From: Candidatus Fervidifonticultor quintus
GTDB lineage: Bacteria; Sysuimicrobiota; Sysuimicrobiia; Sysuimicrobiales; Humicultoraceae
Length of the DNA stretch: 64,000 bases
Assembly: GCA_031459535.1 (NCBI GenBank)
Contig: JAVKIJ010000001.1
Coordinates: 1 to 64,000, forward strand
Direction of reading: 5' to 3'
Position numbers and translations under genes: made by a program. This document shows positions 3,004 to 30,340 of this stretch, in pieces (positions within the stretch are counted from its first letter, which is position 1; every line of letters begins with the position of its first letter). The notes below the pieces were generated by a model. It had not been told where the DNA came from. It did not search any database and worked only from the letters and a program-made list of their open reading frames with translations.

Positions 3004-5079
3004 ATGAGCGCGCGCCGCATCACCATTGAAGACCTGCTCGCACTGCGTTTCGTGGGGGACGTGGCCCTCTCACCGGACGGACGGACCGTCGCCTACGTCC
3101 AGGAGACGATCGAGGCCGCAGGGGAGGCCGCGGGGTCGCCGTACGGGTACCGGTCGGCGATCTGGCTCGCAGACGCCTCCGGCGGCGCACCTCAGCAGTT
3201 CACCGGCGGGGAGGCCCGTGACCGGCGGCCGGTTTGGTCGCCCGACGGCAGCCGCCTGCTCTTCGTGTCGGATCGCGGCCCCGCTACCGGCGGCAGCCGG
3301 CCCAGGCACCTGTGGGTCATCGCGCGGGCCGGCGGAGAGGCACGCCGGATCACGCAGGCCGACTACAATCCCGCCGACGCGGTCTGGTCGCCCGACGGGG
3401 CGCAGATTGCGTTTACCGGCAAGGCGCCCGTCACCGACAAGGCGCCGGCCAGCGACGTGAAGATCATCACGCGTCTCAAGCACAAGTTCGACGGCGAGGG
3501 ATTCTGGGACGCCCGGTACAAGCACATCTTCGTCATCCCCGCATCCGGCGGTGAGGCCCGCCAGGTGACCTCTGGCGACTTCGACCACCGCGAGCCCGCC
3601 TGGAGCCCCGACGGGACGCGCCTGGCCGTCGTGGCCAACCGGTCCGAGGACGCCGACACGACCAACGTCACGGACATTTGGGTCCTCTCGCCGGCGAGCG
3701 GGGAGATGCGGCGCCTGACCGTTGGGGTCGGCCCGTCCGCCAGCCCGTCGTGGTCGCCCGACGGCCGCCTGATCGCCTACCTGGGGCACGAGAACGCGTG
3801 CATGGGCGCGTCCAATGTGATGCTGTGGGTCGTCCCGGCCGACGGCAGTAGCCCGCCCCGATGCCTGACGCGCCACTTCGATCGGTCGCTCGCCCATCAC
3901 ATCATTTCCGACATGCGCGCTCATCCCACGTGCGGCCATCCGGTGTGGTCGCCGGACGGCCGCTTCATCTTCGTCATGGTGGCCGAGGGCGGCACGACGC
4001 AGCTCGCTGCGGTCGAGGTCGCCACAGGTGCGGTGCACCTGATGACCACCGGTCGCCGGGAGATCTACGGCGAGTCGTACGATGCCACGTGCCGGCGCGT
4101 GGCGATGGCGATCTCCGACCCGGCAACGCCGGGCGACATCTGGGTTGCCGAGGTCGAGGGACTGGCCGAGGGCGCGCCGACCATCGCACCCGCGCGCGAG
4201 CGCCGGCTCACCGAGGCCAACAGAGACCTGCTCGGGGGCATCGAGTTGAGCACCCCCCAGCGCTATGCCTACATCGGTGCCGACGGCTGGACCATCGAAG
4301 GCTGGGTGATGCCGCCCGTGGGCCTGGAGCCGGGCCGCCGCTACCCCACGATCCTCGTGGTGCACGGCGGGCCGCACGCGGCTTACGGTGAAGCGTTCTT
4401 CCACGAGTTCCAGGTGCTGGCGGCACTGGGCTATGCGCTGGTACTCACCAACCCGCGCGGCAGCCAGGGGTACGGTCAGACGTTCACGGCGGCCACCCAT
4501 CACGACTGGGGTGGCAAGGACTACGCCGACATCATGGAGGGGCTGGAGGCGGCCCTGGCCCGGTTCGAGTTCCTCGACCGCGACCGCCTGGGCGTGGAGG
4601 GCGGCTCCTACGGCGGCTACATGACCAATTGGATCGTCGGCCATACCCAGCGGTTCAAGGCGGCGGTGACCATGCGCTCGATCGCCAACTGCCTGAGCCA
4701 GTGGGGCACCAGCGACATGGCGTACCTCAAGGGTTACTGGGAGTTCCCCGGCGATCCCTGGGAGAGCCCGCAGTTCTACTGGGAGCGGTCGCCGCTGGCC
4801 TACGTGAAGAACATCACGACGCCGCTACTCATCTTACACAGCGAGAACGACCTGCGCTGTCCCGTCAGCGAGGGCGAACAGCTCTTCGCCGCCCTACGCA
4901 AACAGGGCAAGGAGGTCACCTTCGCGCGCTTCCCCAACGAGAGCCACGATCTGTCGCGCAACGGTCAACCTCAGCACCGCATCGAGCGGCTGCGGTTGAT
5001 CGTGGACTGGTTCGGCAAGTACCTGGCACCGCCCGTGGCCCAGGCCCAGACCGCCAGCGCTGCGCTGGCGGCGCAGTGA
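3004..5079 (+). CDS. S9 family peptidase (acylaminoacyl/prolyl oligopeptidase type)
   Basis: WSPDG beta-propeller repeats, HGGPH, GGSYGG nucleophile motif, D (ENDLRC) and H (ESHDL) triad. Confidence 0.93.
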   Translation: MSARRITIEDLLALRFVGDVALSPDGRTVAYVQETIEAAGEAAGSPYGYRSAIWLADASGGAPQQFTGGEARDRRPVWSPDGSRLLFVSDRGPATGGSRPRHLWVIARAGGEARRITQADYNPADAVWSPDGAQIAFTGKAPVTDKAPASDVKIITRLKHKFDGEGFWDARYKHIFVIPASGGEARQVTSGDFDHREPAWSPDGTRLAVVANRSEDADTTNVTDIWVLSPASGEMRRLTVGVGPSASPSWSPDGRLIAYLGHENACMGASNVMLWVVPADGSSPPRCLTRHFDRSLAHHIISDMRAHPTCGHPVWSPDGRFIFVMVAEGGTTQLAAVEVATGAVHLMTTGRREIYGESYDATCRRVAMAISDPATPGDIWVAEVEGLAEGAPTIAPARERRLTEANRDLLGGIELSTPQRYAYIGADGWTIEGWVMPPVGLEPGRRYPTILVVHGGPHAAYGEAFFHEFQVLAALGYALVLTNPRGSQGYGQTFTAATHHDWGGKDYADIMEGLEAALARFEFLDRDRLGVEGGSYGGYMTNWIVGHTQRFKAAVTMRSIANCLSQWGTSDMAYLKGYWEFPGDPWESPQFYWERSPLAYVKNITTPLLILHSENDLRCPVSEGEQLFAALRKQGKEVTFARFPNESHDLSRNGQPQHRIERLRLIVDWFGKYLAPPVAQAQTASAALAAQ

Positions 5080-21292: not shown

Positions 21293-21416
21293 GGCCTGGG
21301 GACTCTGGCGGGCCCCCAGGGACTGGGTGCCCGGCTCCGAGGGCATACCAGGGTCGGGAGCGAAGTGAGCCGTGAGTGCTCCCCAAGAGTACGAGCACCC
21401 ATGCCGGAGGCCAGCC

Positions 21417-23432
21417 ATGTCTCGCCGTCCCGTTGAGATTGAGGATCTGCTGAAGATCAGGTTCCCGCACAACCCCGCCCTGTCGCCCGACGGGCGGCGG
21501 GCGGCCTTCGCGCTCGCCCGTCTGGACTACGAGGCCAATGAGTGGCGGGCCAATCTCTGGATGGCATCCACCGAGGGTGGGGAGCCCGCCCCGTTCACAG
21601 CCGATGAGGCCCGAGACGCCTCCCCGGTGTGGTCTCCCGATGGCCGGTGGATCGCCTTCCTCTCGAACCGGGCAGGCAAGCGCCGGGGTCGCAAGAAGGC
21701 CGCCATGCAGCTCTGGGTCATTCCCGTTGAAGGTGGTGAGGCGTGGCAGTTGACGGCGTTCGCGGCCGGTGTCAGCCAGCCCGCTTGGTCCCCCGACAGC
21801 CGCACCCTGGCGTTTGTCACCCGCGGGACCGCCGAGCGGCTCGAGACCGCGGGGCCTGATGAGGAACTGGTGGTGCGCGAGATCACGCGGACGAAGTACA
21901 AGTTTGATGGTCTGGGATTCCTCGACGGCTACGCGCACATCTGGACCATCTCCCGCGACGGCGGCGCACCGGTCCGGCTCACCGACGGTGACTTCGACCA
22001 TGACACGCCGGTCTGGCTCCCCGGAGGCCGCGAGATCGTCTTCCTCAGCAATCGAGCCAAGGACGCCGACCTCTCGTTCGTACGGGACGTGTGGGCCGTG
22101 GACGTGGAGTCCAGGGTGATGCGACAGCTGACGCACAACACCGGGCCGGCGGTGTCGCTGGCGGTCTCCCCTGACGGGCGCTGGGTGGCCTTTGTGGGGC
22201 ACGACTTCCACGCCAAGAGCGCCACGAACTTCGGCATCTGGGTGGTGCCGGCCTGGGGCGGCGACGCGGTGGACCTGACCGCGGGCTTCGATCGTTCGGT
22301 GGGCAACGCCGTGGGCAGCGATGCCCGGCTGACCCCGCTGTTCCCGTCCATCGTGTGGGCGCACGACGGCAGCGGGGTCATCTTCTACGCCACGGACGTA
22401 GGACGCACCCACCTCTACTGGGTGGGGCTGGCTGACCGGCGCGTGCAGCAGCTGACCAGCGGCACCGAGGTGGTCGCCGACCTGACCGCCGCCGCCGGGC
22501 AGGTCGTCTACCAGCGCATGGGCCCGCTCACCCTGGACGAACTCTGGGTGCTACCGTCCTCGGGCGAGGCGCGCCGCCTGGTCGCCCCCAACGATGACCT
22601 GCTGGCCGAACTGGAGCTAACCGAGCCCCAGCGCTTCGCGTACACCGGGGCCGATGGCTGGCCGCTGAACGGCTGGGTGCAACTGCCGCTCGGATTCGAC
22701 CCCTCGAAGAAGTACCCCGCGGTGCTGAGGATCCACGGCGGGCCCCATGCCGCTTACGGCGACACGTGGAACCACTACGTAGCGCTCCTGGCCGCGCGCG
22801 GCTACGTGGTGGTCTGGGCGAATCCAAGGGGCAGTGGGGGGTACGGCGAGTCGTTCGCCAGGGCCGTGGTCGAGGACTGGGGGGGCAAGGACAGCGAGGA
22901 CATCCTGGCCGCCCTCGACCATGCCATCGGCATGGGGTTCATTGACCCAGACCGCGTGGCGGTCACCGGCGCCTCCTACGGCGGTTTCATGACCAACACG
23001 CTGATCGGGCGCACCAACCGGTTCCGCTGCGCCGCCACCGAAGTCTGCGTGAGCAACCTGCACAGCTTCTACGGCACCAGCGACATCGGCGCGACCTGGG
23101 GCGAGGTTGAGTGGGGGGCCAATCCCTGGGATGACCCGCAACGGCTGCTCGCGCACTCCCCGTTGATGGCCGCCAGGAACGTCACCGCGCCGGTGCTGAT
23201 CATTGCCAATGAGGCCGACCACCGGTGTCCGGTGGAGCAGTCCGAGCAGTACTTCATCGCGCTGCGCAAGCTGGGCAAGGAAGTCGTCTTCCTGCGCTTC
23301 CAGGACGAGAGTCACACCATGAGTTCCAGCGGTCGCCCCAGGGCGCGCATCGAGCGGTTGCGACGCCTGCTGGCGTGGTTCGACCGCTACCTGAAGCCGG
23401 TGCCCGAGGCGGCACCATCGCCGGGGGACTGA
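21417..23432 (+). CDS. S9 family peptidase
   Basis: WSPD repeats, HGGPH, GASYGG, DHRC, ESH; GGAGG RBS at 21406-21410. Confidence 0.92.
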   Translation: MSRRPVEIEDLLKIRFPHNPALSPDGRRAAFALARLDYEANEWRANLWMASTEGGEPAPFTADEARDASPVWSPDGRWIAFLSNRAGKRRGRKKAAMQLWVIPVEGGEAWQLTAFAAGVSQPAWSPDSRTLAFVTRGTAERLETAGPDEELVVREITRTKYKFDGLGFLDGYAHIWTISRDGGAPVRLTDGDFDHDTPVWLPGGREIVFLSNRAKDADLSFVRDVWAVDVESRVMRQLTHNTGPAVSLAVSPDGRWVAFVGHDFHAKSATNFGIWVVPAWGGDAVDLTAGFDRSVGNAVGSDARLTPLFPSIVWAHDGSGVIFYATDVGRTHLYWVGLADRRVQQLTSGTEVVADLTAAAGQVVYQRMGPLTLDELWVLPSSGEARRLVAPNDDLLAELELTEPQRFAYTGADGWPLNGWVQLPLGFDPSKKYPAVLRIHGGPHAAYGDTWNHYVALLAARGYVVVWANPRGSGGYGESFARAVVEDWGGKDSEDILAALDHAIGMGFIDPDRVAVTGASYGGFMTNTLIGRTNRFRCAATEVCVSNLHSFYGTSDIGATWGEVEWGANPWDDPQRLLAHSPLMAARNVTAPVLIIANEADHRCPVEQSEQYFIALRKLGKEVVFLRFQDESHTMSSSGRPRARIERLRRLLAWFDRYLKPVPEAAPSPGD

Positions 23433-23530: not shown

Positions 23531-23571
23531 AAAACCATGTTCGGTATCTCTTGGAGGTGGCATGTCTACCG

Positions 23572-24330
23572 ATGCGGCTCCAGCGTCAGGCCGCCACGCC
23601 ACTGCACCGGCAGCTCGGGACCGCGCTCGCTAGGGAGATCCGCGGCGGCCGCTTTCGACCCGGCGAGCGCATTCCTTCCGAACGGGCGATCTGCGAAGCC
23701 TACGGCGTCAGCCGGACGACGGTCCGCCAGACGATCGGCGATCTGGTGCGGTCCGGCTTGCTCATGCGGGTTCCGGCGAAAGGCACGTTCGTCGCACCTC
23801 CCAAGATCAATCAGGACCTGACGCGCGTCGTCCGGTTCTCGGAGGCGGTCTCCGCGGCGGGCTACAGACCGTCGTCGCGGCTGCTCGGCATCAGCCGGAT
23901 CGCCGCTCCCGCCGCTGCCGCCGAGGCCCTGGGGCTGTCCAGTGACGAGCCGGTCGTGGTGGTGGACATGCTCAGCCTCGGCGACGGCGTGCCGCTCGCG
24001 TTCTATCGCATCCATCTGCCGCAGGAGACCGGTGAACCCACGGCGCGCGCCCTGCTCGCGGCCGAGGCTGAGGGCCGCGTGACCTTCGGGCTCGTCCTCG
24101 ACCATGTGTTCCGAGTGACCGGGCTGGAGCCGGCCCAGGTCGTGCAGACCTACGAGGCGATCGCCGCTACCCCGGAGCTGGCGCGCGTCCTTGGGGTCAA
24201 CGAGGGCGCGGCGCTCATCGCCAGCGCCCGCACCGTCTTGACCGCCTCCGGCGTACCCATCACCCATGACGACGCCTACTACCGCGGTGACCGCTACCGA
24301 TTCACCATTCGCCGCGCGTATTCCCTGTGA
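23572..24330 (+). CDS. GntR family regulator (HutC/UTRA type)
   Basis: IPSER...YGVSRTTVRQ, KGTFV, C-terminal YRGDRYRF; start uncertain (23551 or 23572). Confidence 0.9.
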   Translation: MRLQRQAATPLHRQLGTALAREIRGGRFRPGERIPSERAICEAYGVSRTTVRQTIGDLVRSGLLMRVPAKGTFVAPPKINQDLTRVVRFSEAVSAAGYRPSSRLLGISRIAAPAAAAEALGLSSDEPVVVVDMLSLGDGVPLAFYRIHLPQETGEPTARALLAAEAEGRVTFGLVLDHVFRVTGLEPAQVVQTYEAIAATPELARVLGVNEGAALIASARTVLTASGVPITHDDAYYRGDRYRFTIRRAYSL

Positions 24331-24400
24331 AGAGTCCCAAGGTGGGCGAGACGCACGCGTGACCGCAAGACAAGATGTCAAGCGAGGAGGGGGACGCATC

Positions 24401-25948
24401 ATGAGAGGACCGCAGTGGCAGGTCAGTATCGCCCTGTTGGTCATGCTACTCAGCCTGCTGCCGCTCGCCGGCGCGCAGGAGCGTGTGCTCGCATTTGCGC
24501 TCGACACGGAAGCGTTCCGACGACCGGAGGCGGAGGCCATCGCGGAGAACCTGCGGGCGATCGGGATTCAGGCCGAGGTGCGAGTGTGGGAACGCACGAG
24601 CCTGATCGCGCGCATCCAGGCCGGTGAGCGGCAGGCCTATCTGACCGACTGGGGCAGCGCCTTCTTCGATCCCTTCGATCTCGCAGAGCCCAAGTTTACC
24701 ACCGGTGGCCGGGGCAACTACTCGTTCTATAGCAACAAGGAGGTCGACGGTCTGCTGGTCGCCGGCTCGACGGGGACGGACGCGGCGAAGCGCCGCGAGG
24801 CGTACTTCAGAGTTCAGGAGATCTTGTTCCGTGAGGCGCCCTGGGTGTTCGGGTACTACCGCCAAGATACCCACGGGGTCAGCAGCTTGGTGGAGAACTG
24901 GGAACCTGCCATGGACAGTCGCATCAACCTCCATGACGCCCGGATGGCGCGGGGCGGGGTCGTGGTGGTCGGCATGAACACCAACGCCATCGTGACCTTT
25001 GATCCCGCCATGTTCCGCGACCGCAAGACCGAGACCGTGCTGCGGAACATCTTCGACGGTCTGGTCACCCGGACGACCCGCGACAGGGTCGTGCTCGAGT
25101 TGGCTTCGACGATGCGCCAGCCTTCGTCCACGGTGTACGAGTTCACCCTTCGGCCGGGCGTGACGTTCCACAATGGCGATCCCCTTACGGTCGAGGATGT
25201 GCTCTTCACGTTTGAGCGCATCCTGAAGGAACGGGCCGTTGGTGGTGAGAGCAGCCCGCGGCGGGCCTTGCTGGGCCCACTGCAGCAGGTCGAACGTGTG
25301 GACGACCAGACCGTGCGGTTTGTGCTGGCGCGGCCCTTCCCGGCCTTTCTGCAGGCACTGGTGCACTTTCAGATCGTCCCCAAGAAGTACATCCAGACCG
25401 TGGGCGATCGGACATTCGCCGAGCGACCAATCGGCGCCGGCCCGTTCAGGTACGTGGCGGGCCGCGTGGACTCCCAGATCGTCCTGGAGCGCTACGAACA
25501 GTACTACGGCGGCGCGCCGGACATCCCGCCGGTGGGTCCGGCGCCGCTGAGAGGGGTGGTGTTTCGCATGATGCCCGAGCCGGCGACGCGGGTGGCGGCC
25601 CTGAAGGCGGGCGAGGTGCACATTATTGAAGACCTGCCGGTAGATTTGATTCCAGAGGTCGAGCGCGACCCGAAGACCGCGGTCCGGACCACCCAGGGTA
25701 CGCGCGTGTACGGCGTGGAGCTCAACAACGCCAGGCCGCCTTTCAACGATGTCAAGGTGCGCCAGGCGCTCAACTACGCGGTGAACTGGGAGGCCATCTT
25801 GAAGTCCGTCTACCGGGGGTACGCCACCCGCCTGTCCACCGCGTTTCTCCCCAGCGGCTTCGGGTACAACCCGCGCCAGCAGGCCTATCCGTACGATGCG
25901 GCGCGGGCACGGACGCTGTTGCGAGAGGCCGGCTACGCTGTCCGGTAG
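24401..25948 (+). CDS. family 5 (peptide/nickel) ABC substrate-binding protein, apparently circularly permuted
   Basis: Signal peptide; TFDP, IFDGLV, LRPGVTFHNG, GAGPF, VRQALNYAV, YPYD; motif blocks are in swapped order. Confidence 0.88.
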   Translation: MRGPQWQVSIALLVMLLSLLPLAGAQERVLAFALDTEAFRRPEAEAIAENLRAIGIQAEVRVWERTSLIARIQAGERQAYLTDWGSAFFDPFDLAEPKFTTGGRGNYSFYSNKEVDGLLVAGSTGTDAAKRREAYFRVQEILFREAPWVFGYYRQDTHGVSSLVENWEPAMDSRINLHDARMARGGVVVVGMNTNAIVTFDPAMFRDRKTETVLRNIFDGLVTRTTRDRVVLELASTMRQPSSTVYEFTLRPGVTFHNGDPLTVEDVLFTFERILKERAVGGESSPRRALLGPLQQVERVDDQTVRFVLARPFPAFLQALVHFQIVPKKYIQTVGDRTFAERPIGAGPFRYVAGRVDSQIVLERYEQYYGGAPDIPPVGPAPLRGVVFRMMPEPATRVAALKAGEVHIIEDLPVDLIPEVERDPKTAVRTTQGTRVYGVELNNARPPFNDVKVRQALNYAVNWEAILKSVYRGYATRLSTAFLPSGFGYNPRQQAYPYDAARARTLLREAGYAVR

Positions 25949-25951
25949 CCC

Positions 25952-26962
25952 ATGCGGGCCGTTGCCGTCGCCCGCCGCATCCTGACCACCATCCCGATCA
26001 TGATCGGGGTGGCGGTGATCGTGTTTGTGGTGATGCGGCTGTTGCCTGGCGATCCGGTGGACATCATGCTAGGCCAGACGGGGGCGGTTTCGCAGCAAGA
26101 CGTGGACCGCCTCCGGCAGGACTTCCATCTGAACCAGCCGCTCGCCCGTCAGCTGCTCCTGTTCCTGGCGGGCGCAGCCCGGGGTGATCTCGGAACCTCG
26201 TTCGCGCGGCGGCGTCCGGTCTTCACCATGCTGATCGAAGCCCTGCCGGCGACGATCGAGCTGGCTGTGACCGCCACGGTGCTGGCGCTGCTCATTGCCA
26301 TCCCCATCGGCGTGCTGTCCGCGGTCCACCAGCGGTCATGGCTCGACCGCCTCGCCATGGGCGCCGCGTTTCTCGGCATCTCCATGCCGGCGTTCTGGTT
26401 GGGGATTGTGGCCATCCTCCTGCTGTCTGTCAGGCTGGGCTGGCTCCCCACCTCCGGCCGTCTCGGGTTCGAAGCGTTCCTGCAGCCGATCACCGGCTTC
26501 GTGCTGCTGGATAGCGTGCTCACGCGCAACTGGCCCGCATTGTGGGACGGCCTGCGGCATCTGATTCTGCCGGCTGCGGTCTTGGGCGCGAGCCTCATGG
26601 CCATCGTGGCCCGCGTCATGCGGTCGAGCATGGTGGAGGTGATGCGGGAGCAGTACGTGACCACGGCGCACTCCAAGGGCCTGGCGCGCCAGGTGGTGAT
26701 CTGGCGGCACGGGGTCCGCAACGCGCTGATTCCCACCCTGACCGTGGTTGGACTGCAGCTTGGCGTGCTGCTCGGCGGCAACATGATCGTCGAGACCGTG
26801 TTCGGGTGGCCGGGCATGGGCCGCCTGGTGGTGGGCGCCATCTTCAGCCGCGACTACCCCGTCGTGCAGGGCGCGGTAATGCTGTATGCGGTGATCTTCG
26901 TGCTCGCCAATCTGGCGGTGGACCTGTGCTACATCATCCTGGATCCGCGGATCTCTTTCTAG
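25952..26962 (+). CDS. peptide ABC transporter permease (DppB-like)
   Basis: PGDP, GDLG.S, HLILP, YV.TA.SKGL, VETVF.WPG.G, RDYPVVQG. Confidence 0.92.
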   Translation: MRAVAVARRILTTIPIMIGVAVIVFVVMRLLPGDPVDIMLGQTGAVSQQDVDRLRQDFHLNQPLARQLLLFLAGAARGDLGTSFARRRPVFTMLIEALPATIELAVTATVLALLIAIPIGVLSAVHQRSWLDRLAMGAAFLGISMPAFWLGIVAILLLSVRLGWLPTSGRLGFEAFLQPITGFVLLDSVLTRNWPALWDGLRHLILPAAVLGASLMAIVARVMRSSMVEVMREQYVTTAHSKGLARQVVIWRHGVRNALIPTLTVVGLQLGVLLGGNMIVETVFGWPGMGRLVVGAIFSRDYPVVQGAVMLYAVIFVLANLAVDLCYIILDPRISF

Positions 26963-26972
26963 GCGTGGCGAG

Positions 26973-27875
26973 GTGGCCACCGTAGCTGTTGTCTCCCCGT
27001 CGCCCCAGACCCGGCGAGGAGGGTTCTGGACCATGGCGCGCCGCCTGGTCCATCACCCCTCGGCGGCGGCCGGCGCCGTGGTCGTCGCCGCCATCGCGGC
27101 CCTGGCGATCCTCGCGCCAGCGGTCGCGCCCTTCGACCCGGGCGCCTCACGCCTGGAAGGGCGGCTCCAGCCGCCCTCATGGATGGCGGGTGGGGCGCCC
27201 GGGCGCTGGTTGGGAACCGACGGTCTGGGACGCGACATCTGGTCGCGGGTCATCTACGGCGGACGAGTCTCGCTTCTCGTAGGCATGGCGGCCACGGCGC
27301 TGTCGCTGTCGCCCGGTCTCGTGCTCGGGTTGGCCGCGGGGTTTTTCCGCGGGGCCGTTGACGGTGTGATCTCGCGATTTGCCGAGTTGCTCATGGCCTT
27401 TCCGCATCTGATCTTCGCCATCGGCGTCATGGCCGCGCTGGGCCCCGGATTCTGGAACCTGGTCATGGCCCTGGCCTTCAAGGGCTGGGTGGAGTTCTTC
27501 CGGGTGGCACGAGGCGACACGCTGAGCCACGGGGCCAGGGAGTATGTGGATGCGGCCCGGGCCATAGGCGCGTCCAGTGCCCGCATTCTCGGCCGGCACA
27601 TCCTGCCCAACATGATTCACACCAGCTTGGTCCTGGCGACCCTTCGCATGGGTCATTTCATCGTCCTGGAAGCATCGCTGTCGTTCCTGGGCATGGGATT
27701 GCCGCCGCGCATTCCGGCCTGGGGCTCAATGGTCGCCGACGGCCGCGAAGTCATGCTCACGGCGTGGTGGGTCTCGACGTTTCCGGGGTTGGCGATCGTG
27801 GTGCTCGTTTTGGCCATCAACATGGTGGGCGAGGGGCTGCGGGACGTCCTCGACCCGCGGCTACGGGTCTCATGA
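26973..27875 (+). CDS. peptide ABC transporter permease (DppC-like)
   Basis: LGTDGLGRD, YGGRVSL, HILPN, EASLSFLG, GEGLRD.LDPR. Confidence 0.92.
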   Translation: MATVAVVSPSPQTRRGGFWTMARRLVHHPSAAAGAVVVAAIAALAILAPAVAPFDPGASRLEGRLQPPSWMAGGAPGRWLGTDGLGRDIWSRVIYGGRVSLLVGMAATALSLSPGLVLGLAAGFFRGAVDGVISRFAELLMAFPHLIFAIGVMAALGPGFWNLVMALAFKGWVEFFRVARGDTLSHGAREYVDAARAIGASSARILGRHILPNMIHTSLVLATLRMGHFIVLEASLSFLGMGLPPRIPAWGSMVADGREVMLTAWWVSTFPGLAIVVLVLAINMVGEGLRDVLDPRLRVS

Positions 27876-28621
27876 GCGCGGAGCACGCCGCGGCGCCATC
27901 TCGTCCTATCGTGGGCATTACGATTTCCGCCCCGACCACTCGCGGGTCTCACAGCATCTGCGCCGGTGTCCCGTACGCTGCTGCCGTCACCTGGGCCGGG
28001 GGCCTGCCTGTGTGGATCCCAGCCGAGGGGGGTCGAGCGGACGCTCGGAATCTCATCGGGCGCCTGGACGCTGTGGTGCTGACCGGTGGCCGGCGCCTGG
28101 ACGCCGCGTTCTTCGCGGCAAATCCGCGGCCGACGCTGGAACAGACCGATCCGACGCGATACTGGCTCGAGCACGCCTTGATCCTGGCCGCGTGCGAACG
28201 AGAGGTGCCCCTCCTGGGCATCTGCCGCGGCATGCAGATGCTGAACGAGGCCTTGGGCGGGACGCTGGTGGGCAACCTCACACTGGACTGGCCCTGCGCA
28301 TTGAACCATCACCAGTCCGAGGACCCCGATCGCCCCTCTCACTGGATCCGGATGGCACCGGACTCGCGGCTGGCCACCGCCGTGGCTGCGACGCGGGAGA
28401 GGGTCAACTCATTCCACCGTCAGGCCGTCGAGCAGCCCGGTACCGGCCTGAGAGCCGTGGCCTGGGCCGATGATGGTGTGATCGAGGCCGTCGAGGCGTC
28501 CCGGCCCGCCGCGTTCATCGTGGGCGTCCAGTTCCACCCCGAAGCCCTGGTGCAGCGTGAGGGTCGCTGGTTGGGACTGTTCGAGGCGCTCGTGGACGCC
28601 GCGCGCCGGCCCAGGACGTGA
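27872..28621 (+). CDS. gamma-glutamyl-gamma-aminobutyrate hydrolase family (peptidase C26)
   Basis: LTGG, LGICRGMQ, VNSFH.QAV, GVQFHPE. Confidence 0.88.
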   Translation: MSAEHAAAPSRPIVGITISAPTTRGSHSICAGVPYAAAVTWAGGLPVWIPAEGGRADARNLIGRLDAVVLTGGRRLDAAFFAANPRPTLEQTDPTRYWLEHALILAACEREVPLLGICRGMQMLNEALGGTLVGNLTLDWPCALNHHQSEDPDRPSHWIRMAPDSRLATAVAATRERVNSFHRQAVEQPGTGLRAVAWADDGVIEAVEASRPAAFIVGVQFHPEALVQREGRWLGLFEALVDAARRPRT

Positions 28622-28631
28622 GGAGGCTCCC

Positions 28632-30008
28632 ATGGACCGCATGACGCTCCTGTCGCCCACGGGGCACTTGGGATTCACACCCATCGAGAGCGGCAGCTTT
28701 TATGCCGGCGCCGCGCGCCAGCCCGACGCCTTCATCGCCGATTCCGGCAGCTGTGACATCGGCCCCTATCCCCTGGGCGCCGATGCGCAGCACAGCCCCG
28801 TGGAGTGGCAGCGCCACGATCTAGAGCTGCTGCTGCTTGCTGCCCGCGCCCAGGGCGTGCCGATGATTATCGGATCGGCCTCGGATACCGGATCCAATCG
28901 CGGGGTGGATCTGTTCGTGCGTCTCATCGAGGACATTGCACGGGCGCACCACCTGCCGCCATTCAAGATGGCGGCGGTCTACGCCGAGGTGTCCCGCGAC
29001 GTGGTGCTGGACCGACTCCGGCAGGGACGGATCGCAGGCTTGGGCGGGCGCGCGGACCTGACGCCCGAGATCGTTGAGCGCACGGACCACATCGTGGCCA
29101 TGATGGGTGCCGAGCCAATCGTGCGCGCCCTGGACGGCGGCGCCGATGTGGTGATCTGCGGGCGTTCCTGCGACGATGCCATCTTTGCCGCACTGCCGCT
29201 GCGGGCGGGCTTTCCCCGGGCGTTGGCCTTCCATTTGGGCAAGGTCCTGGAGTGCGCGTCGCTGTGTGCCGAACCATTCATGGCCAAGGAGACGGTGCTG
29301 GGGACCATCACGCATGACGCGGTCGAGTTCGAACCCATGCACGCCGGGCAGCGGTGCACGCCGGCGTCGGTCATCAGCCACAGCATGTATGAACGCGAGG
29401 ACCCGTACATGCACGCCGTCCCCGGCGGCATCCTGGACCTGCGCGCGTGCCAGTACGAGGCATTGGACGCGCGCCGGACCCGGGTCACCGGTGCCCGCTG
29501 GATACCCGCTGAAGCCTACGCGGTCAAACTGGAAGGGGCCGGATGGGTGGGCTCCCGGGCCTTTGCGTTCGCGGCGTTGCGCGACCCGTACGCCATCCAA
29601 CAGATCGACCGAATGGAGCGATGGGCCCGGGCCAAGGTCGCGGAGCGACATGGTGCGCCAGGCCCCGGGCGCTACGAGTTGTTTTTCCGCGTCTATGGCC
29701 GAGATGGTGTGCTGGGGGCCCGGGAGCCGAAACGACACATCACCAGCCACGAGGTGGCCCTGATGATCGAGGCTGTGGCACCCACGGACGACGAGGCCAT
29801 GGCCATTGCTACGCTGGCGCAGCGCAACTTCTTCTTCGCTCGCTTCCCGGGACTGCGCGGGACGGCGGGCACCGCGGCCCTGCCCGTGGACGAGGTGTTC
29901 CTGGGCCGCCCGGCGTATTCGTGGACGATCAATCACCTGCTGCCCTTGGACGACCCATGCGAGTTGTTCCCGACGCGTTTCATCGACGTGAGCGCCGCGC
30001 GGCGCTAG
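28632..30008 (+). CDS. acyclic terpene utilization AtuA-family protein
   Basis: G.LGF, DSGS.D.GP..LG, MG.EPI..AL..GADVVI.GR..D, GK.LEC, H..YE. Confidence 0.75.
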   Translation: MDRMTLLSPTGHLGFTPIESGSFYAGAARQPDAFIADSGSCDIGPYPLGADAQHSPVEWQRHDLELLLLAARAQGVPMIIGSASDTGSNRGVDLFVRLIEDIARAHHLPPFKMAAVYAEVSRDVVLDRLRQGRIAGLGGRADLTPEIVERTDHIVAMMGAEPIVRALDGGADVVICGRSCDDAIFAALPLRAGFPRALAFHLGKVLECASLCAEPFMAKETVLGTITHDAVEFEPMHAGQRCTPASVISHSMYEREDPYMHAVPGGILDLRACQYEALDARRTRVTGARWIPAEAYAVKLEGAGWVGSRAFAFAALRDPYAIQQIDRMERWARAKVAERHGAPGPGRYELFFRVYGRDGVLGAREPKRHITSHEVALMIEAVAPTDDEAMAIATLAQRNFFFARFPGLRGTAGTAALPVDEVFLGRPAYSWTINHLLPLDDPCELFPTRFIDVSAARR

Positions 30009-30028
30009 TGGATTGGGGGTGCCGGCGC

Positions 30029-30340
30029 ATGCCCAGGCTCTTTGATCTCGCCACTACCATCCGCAGCAAGAACGCTGGTGTCGACCACGTGACGTTCGAC
30101 ATCATCTTCACCGACCGTGCCGTCTATGACCGAGTTAAGGCCAGCGGGGTGCTGACCAGGGAGTCGGTGGCTTGGCTCTACCGGGTGCCGGTCGAGGAGG
30201 TCACCCACTTCATGCACGTCGAGGCGGCACCCGCCGTAAAATTCACCCTGCGGCGCACGCGCCCCAGCGGCGACCCTGGCGAGACGGACGTCTTCGGGTC
30301 GCAGCAGTACCCGCCGTTGTTCGATCTCGAGATTCCGTGA
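30029..30340 (+). CDS. DUF4387-type small protein (AtuA-like partner)
   Basis: LA..IRSKNAG...TFDIIF, D.FG.QQY.PL. Confidence 0.75.
   Translation: MPRLFDLATTIRSKNAGVDHVTFDIIFTDRAVYDRVKASGVLTRESVAWLYRVPVEEVTHFMHVEAAPAVKFTLRRTRPSGDPGETDVFGSQQYPPLFDLEIP

Follow-up and report, generated by a model that had tools for sequence, protein, structure and literature searches.

The substrate-binding proteins of ATP-binding cassette (ABC) importers, whose conserved two-lobed architecture is a textbook subject, serve widely as scaffolds for biosensors, and cluster C, which comprises the peptide, nickel, and opine binders, is their largest class. The protein considered here is the product of a gene found in the window, i.e., the whole stretch of 64,000 nucleotides analyzed, taken from contig JAVKIJ010000001.1 of Candidatus Fervidifonticultor quintus (assembly GCA_031459535.1). 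Comparisons with family profiles, solved proteins, and paralogs confirmed that it is a family-5 (DppA/OppA-type, cluster C) substrate-binding protein with a circularly permuted chain, as had been proposed in an initial annotation of this DNA. The best explanation, which we consider very probable, is that of a functional secreted binding protein of the Dpp/Opp type (PepT family), in which the ordinary two-lobed cluster-C fold would be built from a permuted chain.

The solved cluster C proteins (B. anthracis 5U4O, H. pylori DppA 6OFQ, E. coli DppA 1DPE/1DPP/8Z1Y, YliB 1UQW, NikA, and OppA) belong to the same Pfam family (PF00496), share the same predicted fold over the alignable two-thirds (Z 24-27), and come from the same operon type with DppB/DppC-like permeases. 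In contrast to them, the window chain is rotated: it opens with the ~155 residues that close a canonical chain, and its two ends fall in the loop after '…EAGY'. The closest canonical relatives are the metagenomic proteins P0152 and P0149 and a Thermoanaerobacteraceae group (loci L073-L077 and L081, including Caldanaerobacter subterraneus DSM 13054), with 45-55% identity in both pieces of the chain. Homologous permeases are found downstream of their genes, and some of them share the peptidase C26 and GntR neighbours described below. However, the order is canonical in these relatives, in which 'GGT[IL]V…' is preceded by a signal peptide or a lipobox and '…HDVxLxx' closes the chain, and in trees they are placed as sister to, or nested among, the permuted proteins.

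A natural permutation of an ABC binding protein has been described for TpMglB-2 (Tp0684) of Treponema pallidum, a circularly permuted glucose-binding protein labelled 'Type Ic / Cluster Bc' by its authors (PMC4990184). According to that report, the permutation is likewise conserved in a family of homologues, and TpMglB-2 still binds its ligand and changes conformation (PMC4990184). The two cases differ in that TpMglB-2 is a type I / cluster B sugar binder in which three N-lobe strands were moved and a fourth hinge crossing was needed, whereas the window protein would have no extra hinge crossing. Moreover, the permuted part of TpMglB-2 is hardly alignable (13% identity; PMC4990184), in contrast to the 45-50% identity of both window pieces to their canonical sisters. 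Only PF00496 was matched by the window protein and its structural neighbours were all cluster-C proteins; it is analogous in kind to TpMglB-2 and not a member of that group. No description of a permuted family-5 or cluster C binding protein was found in the literature searched, subscription-only papers aside, and the available passages of the GisABCD paper make no mention of permutation. Natural permutation of this protein class seems undescribed, the cluster-B protein TpMglB-2 being the only precedent found.

Reversed order of the two pieces of the chain

The whole protein matched the Pfam SBP_bac_5 model (PF00496) with 266.9 bits (E 3.9e-79; cut-off 32.4) in two stretches. The initial annotation had expected the two halves to match the hidden Markov model (HMM) of this family in reversed order, and this was observed when they were scanned separately: residues 26-184 corresponded to HMM positions 297-366 (E 1.8e-07, 31.0 bits) and residues 185-515 to positions 5-279 of 368 (E 1.2e-70). 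The protein is a member of SBP_bac_5 by homology and a variant by topology, being collinear with neither the family model nor the solved members. The same order was recovered by phmmer against PDB sequences, in which residues 184-512 and 40-146 of the query aligned with 42-359 and 375-484 of 5u4o_A, and residues 183-512 and 36-151 with 28-369 and 379-500 of 6ofq_A; the reversal held throughout the alignments and ranges shown (60 listed of 102 matches). A profile built from 61 family members gave 81 matches to PDB sequences, 60 of them listed, and placed its positions 231-517 and 45-171 on 43-341 and 362-491 of E. coli DppA (1dpe). Among the matches listed (60 of 102 for phmmer, 60 of 81 for the profile), no collinear full-length match to any PDB sequence was found, nor did a collinear alignment to ordinary family-5 proteins, which would have spoken against a permutation, appear elsewhere. 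The NCBIfam equivalog models matched only residues ~180-513, every one of them below its cut-off, and the names given to homologues in public databases are generic, e.g., 'ABC transporter substrate-binding protein'.

The genome itself offered an internal comparison. Among 84 tblastn matches, the sole full-length one was the window's own gene; at the other paralog places with both pieces, the ~183-513 piece came first and the ~24-187 piece followed downstream on the same strand. Six paralog open reading frames (ORFs) were checked, and in all of them the two pieces were abutting and reversed relative to the query, as in the ORF of locus L006, in which residues 8-262 aligned with 246-511 of the query and residues 266-403 with 24-162. 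Since the canonical order is kept at all other family-5 paralog places of the genome (~50 places, including these six ORFs), the reversed order is specific to the window's gene within this genome, far beyond chance.

The position of the break could be read from P0152 (513 aa), the canonical protein nearest to the query in the library of 50% clusters, whose residues 31-354 aligned with 188-512 of the query (49% identity) and residues 360-513 with 32-184 (45% identity); only the loop at the new termini was changed, and nothing else was lost or added. Around the loop where permuted chains begin and end, canonical chains read '…LL.EAGY-PNGF-x[LF]x[LI]D[TV]…', their mature start is '…GGT[LI]VV[GA]…', and their end is '…NLHDVxLxx*'. 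The window protein shows the mature start 'ERVLAFALDT…', the join '…NLHDARMAR-GGVVVVGM…', and the end '…LLREAGYAVR*'. These alignments of the chain ends indicate that the old termini were joined without a linker and that the new termini replace one surface loop. The loop lies between the '...LL.EAGY' helix and the next strand (DppA mature residues 341 / ~345), in agreement with the earlier proposal of new termini in a loop of the second lobe; the assignment of residues ~26-184 to the canonical C-terminal third and of ~185-515 to the N-terminal two-thirds was likewise borne out by the Pfam, PDB, profile, and paralog alignments.

A collinear match across the junction of a tandem duplicate is the classical signature of circular permutation. 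Such a match was provided by P0125, a natural 1102-aa protein with two SBP_bac_5 copies, in which residues 44-512 of the query aligned with 448-941 as one collinear high-scoring segment pair (HSP; E 5e-37) that begins in the last part of copy 1 and continues into the first part of copy 2.

The gene and its signals

The ORF is intact, with 515 codons and a stop, and a Shine-Dalgarno-like sequence precedes its ATG (Table 1), as the initial annotation had stated; all the family motifs quoted there were also found in the sequence. The frame is open already from 24266, but the part before 24401 overlaps the end of the GntR-type gene, and 24401 is the start common to the homologues. The N-terminus, MRGPQWQVSIALLVMLLSLLPLAGA/QE, resembles a signal peptide on sequence reading, being hydrophobic with an A-G-A/Q cleavage-type site, which agrees with the ~25 residues previously assigned to it, and residues 1-30 showed low predicted local distance difference test (pLDDT) values in the AlphaFold2 model. 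In the homologues, a hydrophobic N-terminus is followed directly by the same strand as in the window protein.

Table 1. Positions of the permuted gene, its parts, and its neighbours in the window.
Feature	Position (nt)	Strand	Remarks
S9 prolyl-oligopeptidase-family gene	21372-23432		Directly upstream of the GntR/UTRA regulator
GntR/UTRA (HutC-type) regulator	23551-24330	+	Pfam GntR and UTRA; directly upstream of the permuted gene
Shine-Dalgarno-like GGAGG	24386-24390	+	~10 nt 5' of ATG; read directly
Permuted family-5 substrate-binding protein gene (P0001)	24401-25948	+	515 aa and stop; intact ORF
Putative signal peptide, residues 1-25	24401-24475	+	A-G-A/Q cleavage-type site; no lipobox Cys
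Residues 26-184, canonical C-terminal third	24476-24952	+	Directly after the signal peptide; alignments to Pfam, 5u4o, DppA, and P0152
Junction of old C-terminus (…NLHDARMAR) and old mature N-terminus (GGVVVVGM…)	24944-24964	+	No linker; canonical alignments, pLDDT 84-95, DNA contigs
Residues 185-515, canonical N-terminal two-thirds	24953-25945	+	End …LLREAGYAVR; Pfam, P0152, VIA-align
DppB/OppB-type permease (permB)	25952-26962	+	Pfam BPD_transp_1 and BPD_transp_1_N; 3 nt after the binding-protein stop
DppC/OppC-type permease (permC)	26973-27875	+	Pfam BPD_transp_1 and OppC_N; 10-nt gap; conserved downstream in related loci
Peptidase C26 / class-I glutamine amidotransferase-like hydrolase	27764-28621 (ORF limits)	+	Pfam Peptidase_C26, E 2.4e-54
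AtuA-like (PF07287) protein gene	28557-30008	+	Pfam
DUF4387 protein gene	29543-30340 (ORF limits; domain ~30038-30328)	+	Pfam

Predicted structure

The AlphaFold2 model, calculated from a 61-row alignment, had a mean pLDDT of 92.3 and a predicted template modelling score (pTM) of 0.86, with 84-95 at the junction and more than 90 at the C-terminus. Foldseek against the PDB returned only family-5 proteins (~350 columns aligned, TMq 0.54-0.55). VIA-align superposed residues 179/187-515 of the model on the first ~320-345 residues of canonical chains in 50/50 listed entries (Z 23.9-27.1). Among the listed Foldseek and VIA-align entries there was no full-length collinear structural match, and sequential aligners left the first 160 mature residues un-co-aligned. 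A two-lobed cluster-C fold is predicted for the whole chain from the model together with the homology of its pieces.

After the signal peptide, this chain would begin at the strand found after the '…LL.EAGY-xxGF' loop in canonical chains, run through the C-terminal third, pass from the old C-terminus to the old mature N-terminus without a linker, continue through the first two-thirds, and stop at '…EAGYAVR'. With the domain layout of DppA as the basis of the count, it would cross the hinge twice, as in the canonical fold, and both termini would lie side by side in the lobe built by the later part of the canonical chain, not in the first lobe.

Conservation, selection, and assembly

Full-length permuted homologues, which the initial annotation had recommended seeking, proved abundant. 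The database protein set consisted of the query and the 120 best proteins, drawn from 1819 hits among 8000 scored candidates, and 120 of these 121 proteins crossed the junction in a single BLASTP HSP; the exception, P0052, is a 345-aa fragment. Three proteins flagged as canonical by a crude rule were found to carry an extra weak signal-peptide HSP, their main HSPs being in the permuted order. A scan of species genomes yielded 262 confirmed relatives among 272 pattern matches, of which the best 80 loci were kept. HMMs of both pieces classified 64 of them as permuted and 13 as canonical, the remaining three being cut by contig ends. The permuted loci span at least six phyla: Bacillota (45), Thermodesulfobacteriota (4), Ca. 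Sysuimicrobiota (3), Armatimonadota (2), Pseudomonadota (2), Ignavibacteriota (1), and Myxococcota (1), in addition to six unplaced metagenome-assembled genomes (MAGs). The nearest ones belong to Ca. Fervidifonticultor MAGs (87-88% identity); two others come from a complete MAG chromosome (L024) and from an isolate, Moorella mulderi DSM 14980 (L023). A permuted homologue is also present in the cultured strain Thermaerobacter subterraneus DSM 13965. The permuted proteins share the start strand and an end formed by '…EAGY' plus 3-8 residues, and in the permuted loci inspected the junction that separates 'NLH[DR]' from the following strand measured 9-10 residues.

Purifying selection acts on the gene. 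The ratio of nonsynonymous to synonymous substitution rates (dN/dS) was 0.097-0.190 in 7/7 orthologue pairs, values that are approximate with dS ~1, and it was similar in both pieces and at the junction. An assembly join near 24950, which would have undermined the proposal, did not appear: DNA contigs from runs X1 and X2 covered 24300-26000 with zero differences and a contig from run X3 covered 24300-25039, so that three runs bridged this position, although the runs carrying the stretch may be the window assembly's own source.

A 160-aa query across the junction was also compared with 1.84 billion cluster representatives, which gave 2335 matches at E <= 1e-3, 143 at <= 1e-10, and 5 at <= 1e-30; canonical proteins also score with this query through two separate stretches, and these counts do not isolate the permuted family. 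Of 149 newly listed proteins, 103 were canonical, 22 and 10 had one piece only, five had no BLASTP match, and nine crossed the junction, two of which (P0249 and P0286) were not permuted on inspection.

Operon and transport context

Both an export signal and linkage to DppB/DppC-type permeases were found. A permB homologue lies directly downstream in 75/80 loci, with permease identities of 48-84%; among the five loci without it, L046, L071, and L083 are cut short, and in L060 and L086 the domain lies within a histidine kinase. The initial annotation had spoken of coupled permeases, and the spacing of the two permease genes upheld this part of the claim, but the operon carries no ATPase genes. 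In the loci of Bacillota and Thermodesulfobacteriota, ATPase-like sequence was found after permC, with two ATPase ORFs each in L023, L024, and L030. The lack of operon ATPases is a trait of the whole genome, which is 89% complete and holds ~51 family-5 binding-protein, 53 DppB-like, and 51 DppC-like places. Besides one complete DppD/DppF-like pair (oligo_HPY; G000:C76:19842-21870), only two partial copies were detected (C91:3-725 and C50:6333-7175). These counts suggest that a single ATPase pair serves many Dpp/Opp-type permeases. As the receptor of a Dpp/Opp-type (PepT family) ABC importer, the secreted binding protein would hand its ligand over to the pair of permeases transcribed with it, and these would be energised by ATPase subunits encoded elsewhere. 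Because the operon has no ATPase genes and the genome a single complete DppD/DppF-like pair, we can only infer transport competence.

Upstream, the GntR/UTRA regulator gene keeps its position in the closest loci and in L066 and is found near the transporter in L023, L035, L082, and L085. Downstream, the first gene after permC is that of the C26 hydrolase, which probably starts near 27880-27905; ATPase genes do not intervene, and the adjacency is also seen in L011, L013, and L066; the gene is present in 14/64 permuted loci versus 3/13 canonical sister loci. The AtuA-like gene lies beside the transporter in L011, L013, L017-L020, L023, L030, L035, and L066, and the DUF4387 gene co-occurs with it in the same loci. 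The trio formed by the C26, AtuA-like, and DUF4387 genes (27764-30340) recurs beside this transporter type in several phyla, and a literature search on DUF4387 and DUF1446 returned nothing informative on its function. Elsewhere in the window, a second S9 paralog (3004-5031) is 42% identical to the one listed in Table 1, and the upstream segment 18417-21292 encodes a fused two-domain permease of 587 aa, in which BPD_transp_1 is matched twice, followed by an ABC ATPase with TOBE_2; the genes of this segment are syntenic with Ca. Fervidifonticultor loci at 78-88% identity.

The permuted domain was also observed outside transporters. Three hybrid histidine kinases of 1763-1892 aa (P0122-P0124) carry an N-terminal permuted family-5 domain, of full length and 49-53% identical, together with SBP_bac_3 domains, HisKA, HATPase_c, and a receiver domain; loci L060 and L086 have no permeases.

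Origin of the permuted form

The most likely route of origin is tandem duplication, fusion, and trimming: a canonical gene of one subfamily would have been duplicated in tandem and fused in frame, after which the outer parts would have been lost and a new signal peptide gained. The permuted form would then have been inherited and exchanged among thermophilic and anaerobic bacteria. The tandem family-5 proteins P0125 and P0286 (1560 aa) show the same piece order across their copy junctions and illustrate the presumed intermediate; they keep both outer parts, are 24-28% identical, and are not the ancestor of the permuted form. In another protein, P0208 (3308 aa), the junction query was matched in 19 stretches, with family-5 copies in tandem; P0125, P0286, and P0208 represent possible raw material for permutations.

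In a tree of the large piece, 28/28 permuted rows formed one clade (Shimodaira–Hasegawa-like approximate likelihood ratio test support 96) within a 99-supported clade that also held 18 canonical rows, more distant paralogs falling outside. This nesting indicates that the permuted form was derived within one canonical subfamily. When the 13 canonical loci were added, the main permuted clade had the canonical Thermoanaerobacteraceae group as its sister (support 96), and the permuted Symbiobacterium/Ignavibacteriales pair (L055, L062) fell outside, so that two changes were needed. In the approximately unbiased (AU) test, a single permuted clade was not rejected (delta lnL 1.04, p 0.474). The very divergent permuted proteins P0220 and P0260 (~30% identity) grouped with the clade on long branches. 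The break point and the 9-10-residue junction shared by the permuted proteins inspected favour one event, possibly followed by reversion.

Alternative explanations

Several observations weigh against parts of this account. Residues 26-184 alone score 1.4 bits below the 32.4 Pfam cut-off, and their placement in the fold depends on AlphaFold confidence and sequence homology. Folded alone (37-row alignment), this piece gave a poor model (pLDDT 69.9, pTM 0.40) whose best VIA-align Z was <= 7.5, at an rmsd (root-mean-square deviation) of 7-9 Å; the top seven matches were C-terminal thirds of family-5 chains, which is consistent with the assignment and not probative. Contigs from RNA libraries covered 24300-24818, 24944-25243, and 25673-26000; none of them reached across the junction with 31 nt to each side of it, and they may reflect DNA carry-over. 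A misjoining of two ordinary family-5 gene fragments near 24950, during assembly or gene calling, would find some ground in a fragmented assembly of 138 contigs and in runs that may be the source of the stretch; this artefact is already refuted for practical purposes, however, by 120 database proteins of many sources with the same arrangement, by the 64 species-representative genomes that share it, isolate and complete genome included, by the contigs of three DNA runs across the junction, and by the purifying selection on it, and the diversity of the permuted records (48-100% identity) excludes a single pipeline error. The missing ATPase genes, which the nearest relatives L011, L013, and L066 also lack, and the single complete DppD/DppF-like pair of the genome weigh on the transport role. 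In addition, D436 of the DppA precursor (mature D408) aligns with the near-invariant A87 of the permuted family, so that the window protein has Ala at a ligand residue of E. coli DppA. The operon composition, and the recurrence of the same permuted domain as the N-terminal sensor part of P0122-P0124, could point to a real permutant that no longer takes part in transport here, being either a receptor of the sensor or chemoreceptor type or an orphan binding protein. We regard this as improbable, given two tightly coupled permease genes conserved across most loci, the ATPase genes of the related Bacillota and Thermodesulfobacteriota operons (two in each of those checked), and an ATPase shortage that is general in the genome.

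As for the origin, free trees need two changes for the large piece or three for the small one, in which the starred branches force two, and a single origin is not established. In the free trees of both pieces, the canonical Thermoanaerobacteraceae group is nested within the smallest clade to include every permuted protein, the permuted pair L055 and L062 branching outside that group, and yet the break point is shared, which would imply either a reversion by a second duplication and deletion or two identical independent permutations; that the chain order flipped more than once in this subfamily is a tentative proposal, which we hold to be less likely than not. A candidate reversion 'scar' in the Thermoanaerobacteraceae loop after 'AG[YV]' was rejected as too weak, the loop being merely one residue shorter and devoid of the 'GF' motif. 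Instead of duplication and trimming, pieces of two paralogous genes could have been fused, a 3' fragment being placed before another gene truncated at its 3' end. The ~50 family-5 paralogs of the genome, some of them adjacent, would supply abundant raw material for such an event, and no direct duplicated ancestor of the clade was found, P0125 being only 28% identical. Nevertheless, both pieces share P0152, P0149, and the Thermoanaerobacteraceae proteins as their nearest canonical relatives, with similar identities in each and coordinates that abut with neither overlap nor gap, and we consider this fusion very improbable relative to duplication and trimming. A distinct proposal concerns the driving force, namely that the permutation was selected for moving the N-terminal attachment (lipid anchor or signal peptide) to the other lobe, which would alter docking on the permease. 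It draws on the predominance of Bacillota among the permuted loci, on the finding that in 23/122 full-length permuted proteins a lipobox-like Cys is joined to the first strand by a linker of 9-31 residues, and on the TpMglB-2 authors, who raise tethering as a possible driver (PMC4990184). It appears unlikely, however, since 99/122 proteins, that of the window included, have no lipobox and the canonical sisters of Bacillota are also lipoproteins.

Expected ligand

In DppA, the dipeptide termini are held by R383 and D436 in precursor numbering, D436 (D408 mature) binding the peptide amino group, as stated in the published account (PMC12136057). The Ala found at the latter position makes an ordinary dipeptide ligand doubtful. 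R383 (mature R355) falls just after the new N-terminus, where the permuted family has invariant D35 and R40. Taken together, these alignments would lead one to expect a carboxylate-bearing ligand rather than an ordinary dipeptide with a free amino group. One guess, and no more than that, is a small peptide-like compound of the gamma-glutamyl type or N-blocked in another way, as the neighbouring C26 hydrolase might suggest.

Significance

The protein is a real, conserved, and selected permutant; its topology is unusual, whereas the part it plays in the operon is an ordinary one. Its existence shows that chains of the cluster-C fold can begin and end in the loop following the '…EAGY' helix, by alignment only ~10-15 residues from a ligand-contacting loop; since the permutant is conserved, the loop of the new termini constitutes a nature-validated site for protein engineering. 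The canonical sisters at 45-55% identity provide matched pairs in which the influence of connectivity on folding, hinge dynamics, tethering, and docking on the permease can be compared. For annotation, permuted proteins receive split or out-of-order domain matches and generic names, and no NCBIfam model reaches its cut-off. Moreover, the tandem-double proteins and the possible second flip make the duplication-deletion route directly testable within one family. If the chain order did flip more than once, circular permutation would be a recurrent, possibly reversible topological switch in cluster-C binding proteins, one that might be tied to the position of the membrane anchor and whose permuted form was also recruited as a sensor module of histidine kinases.

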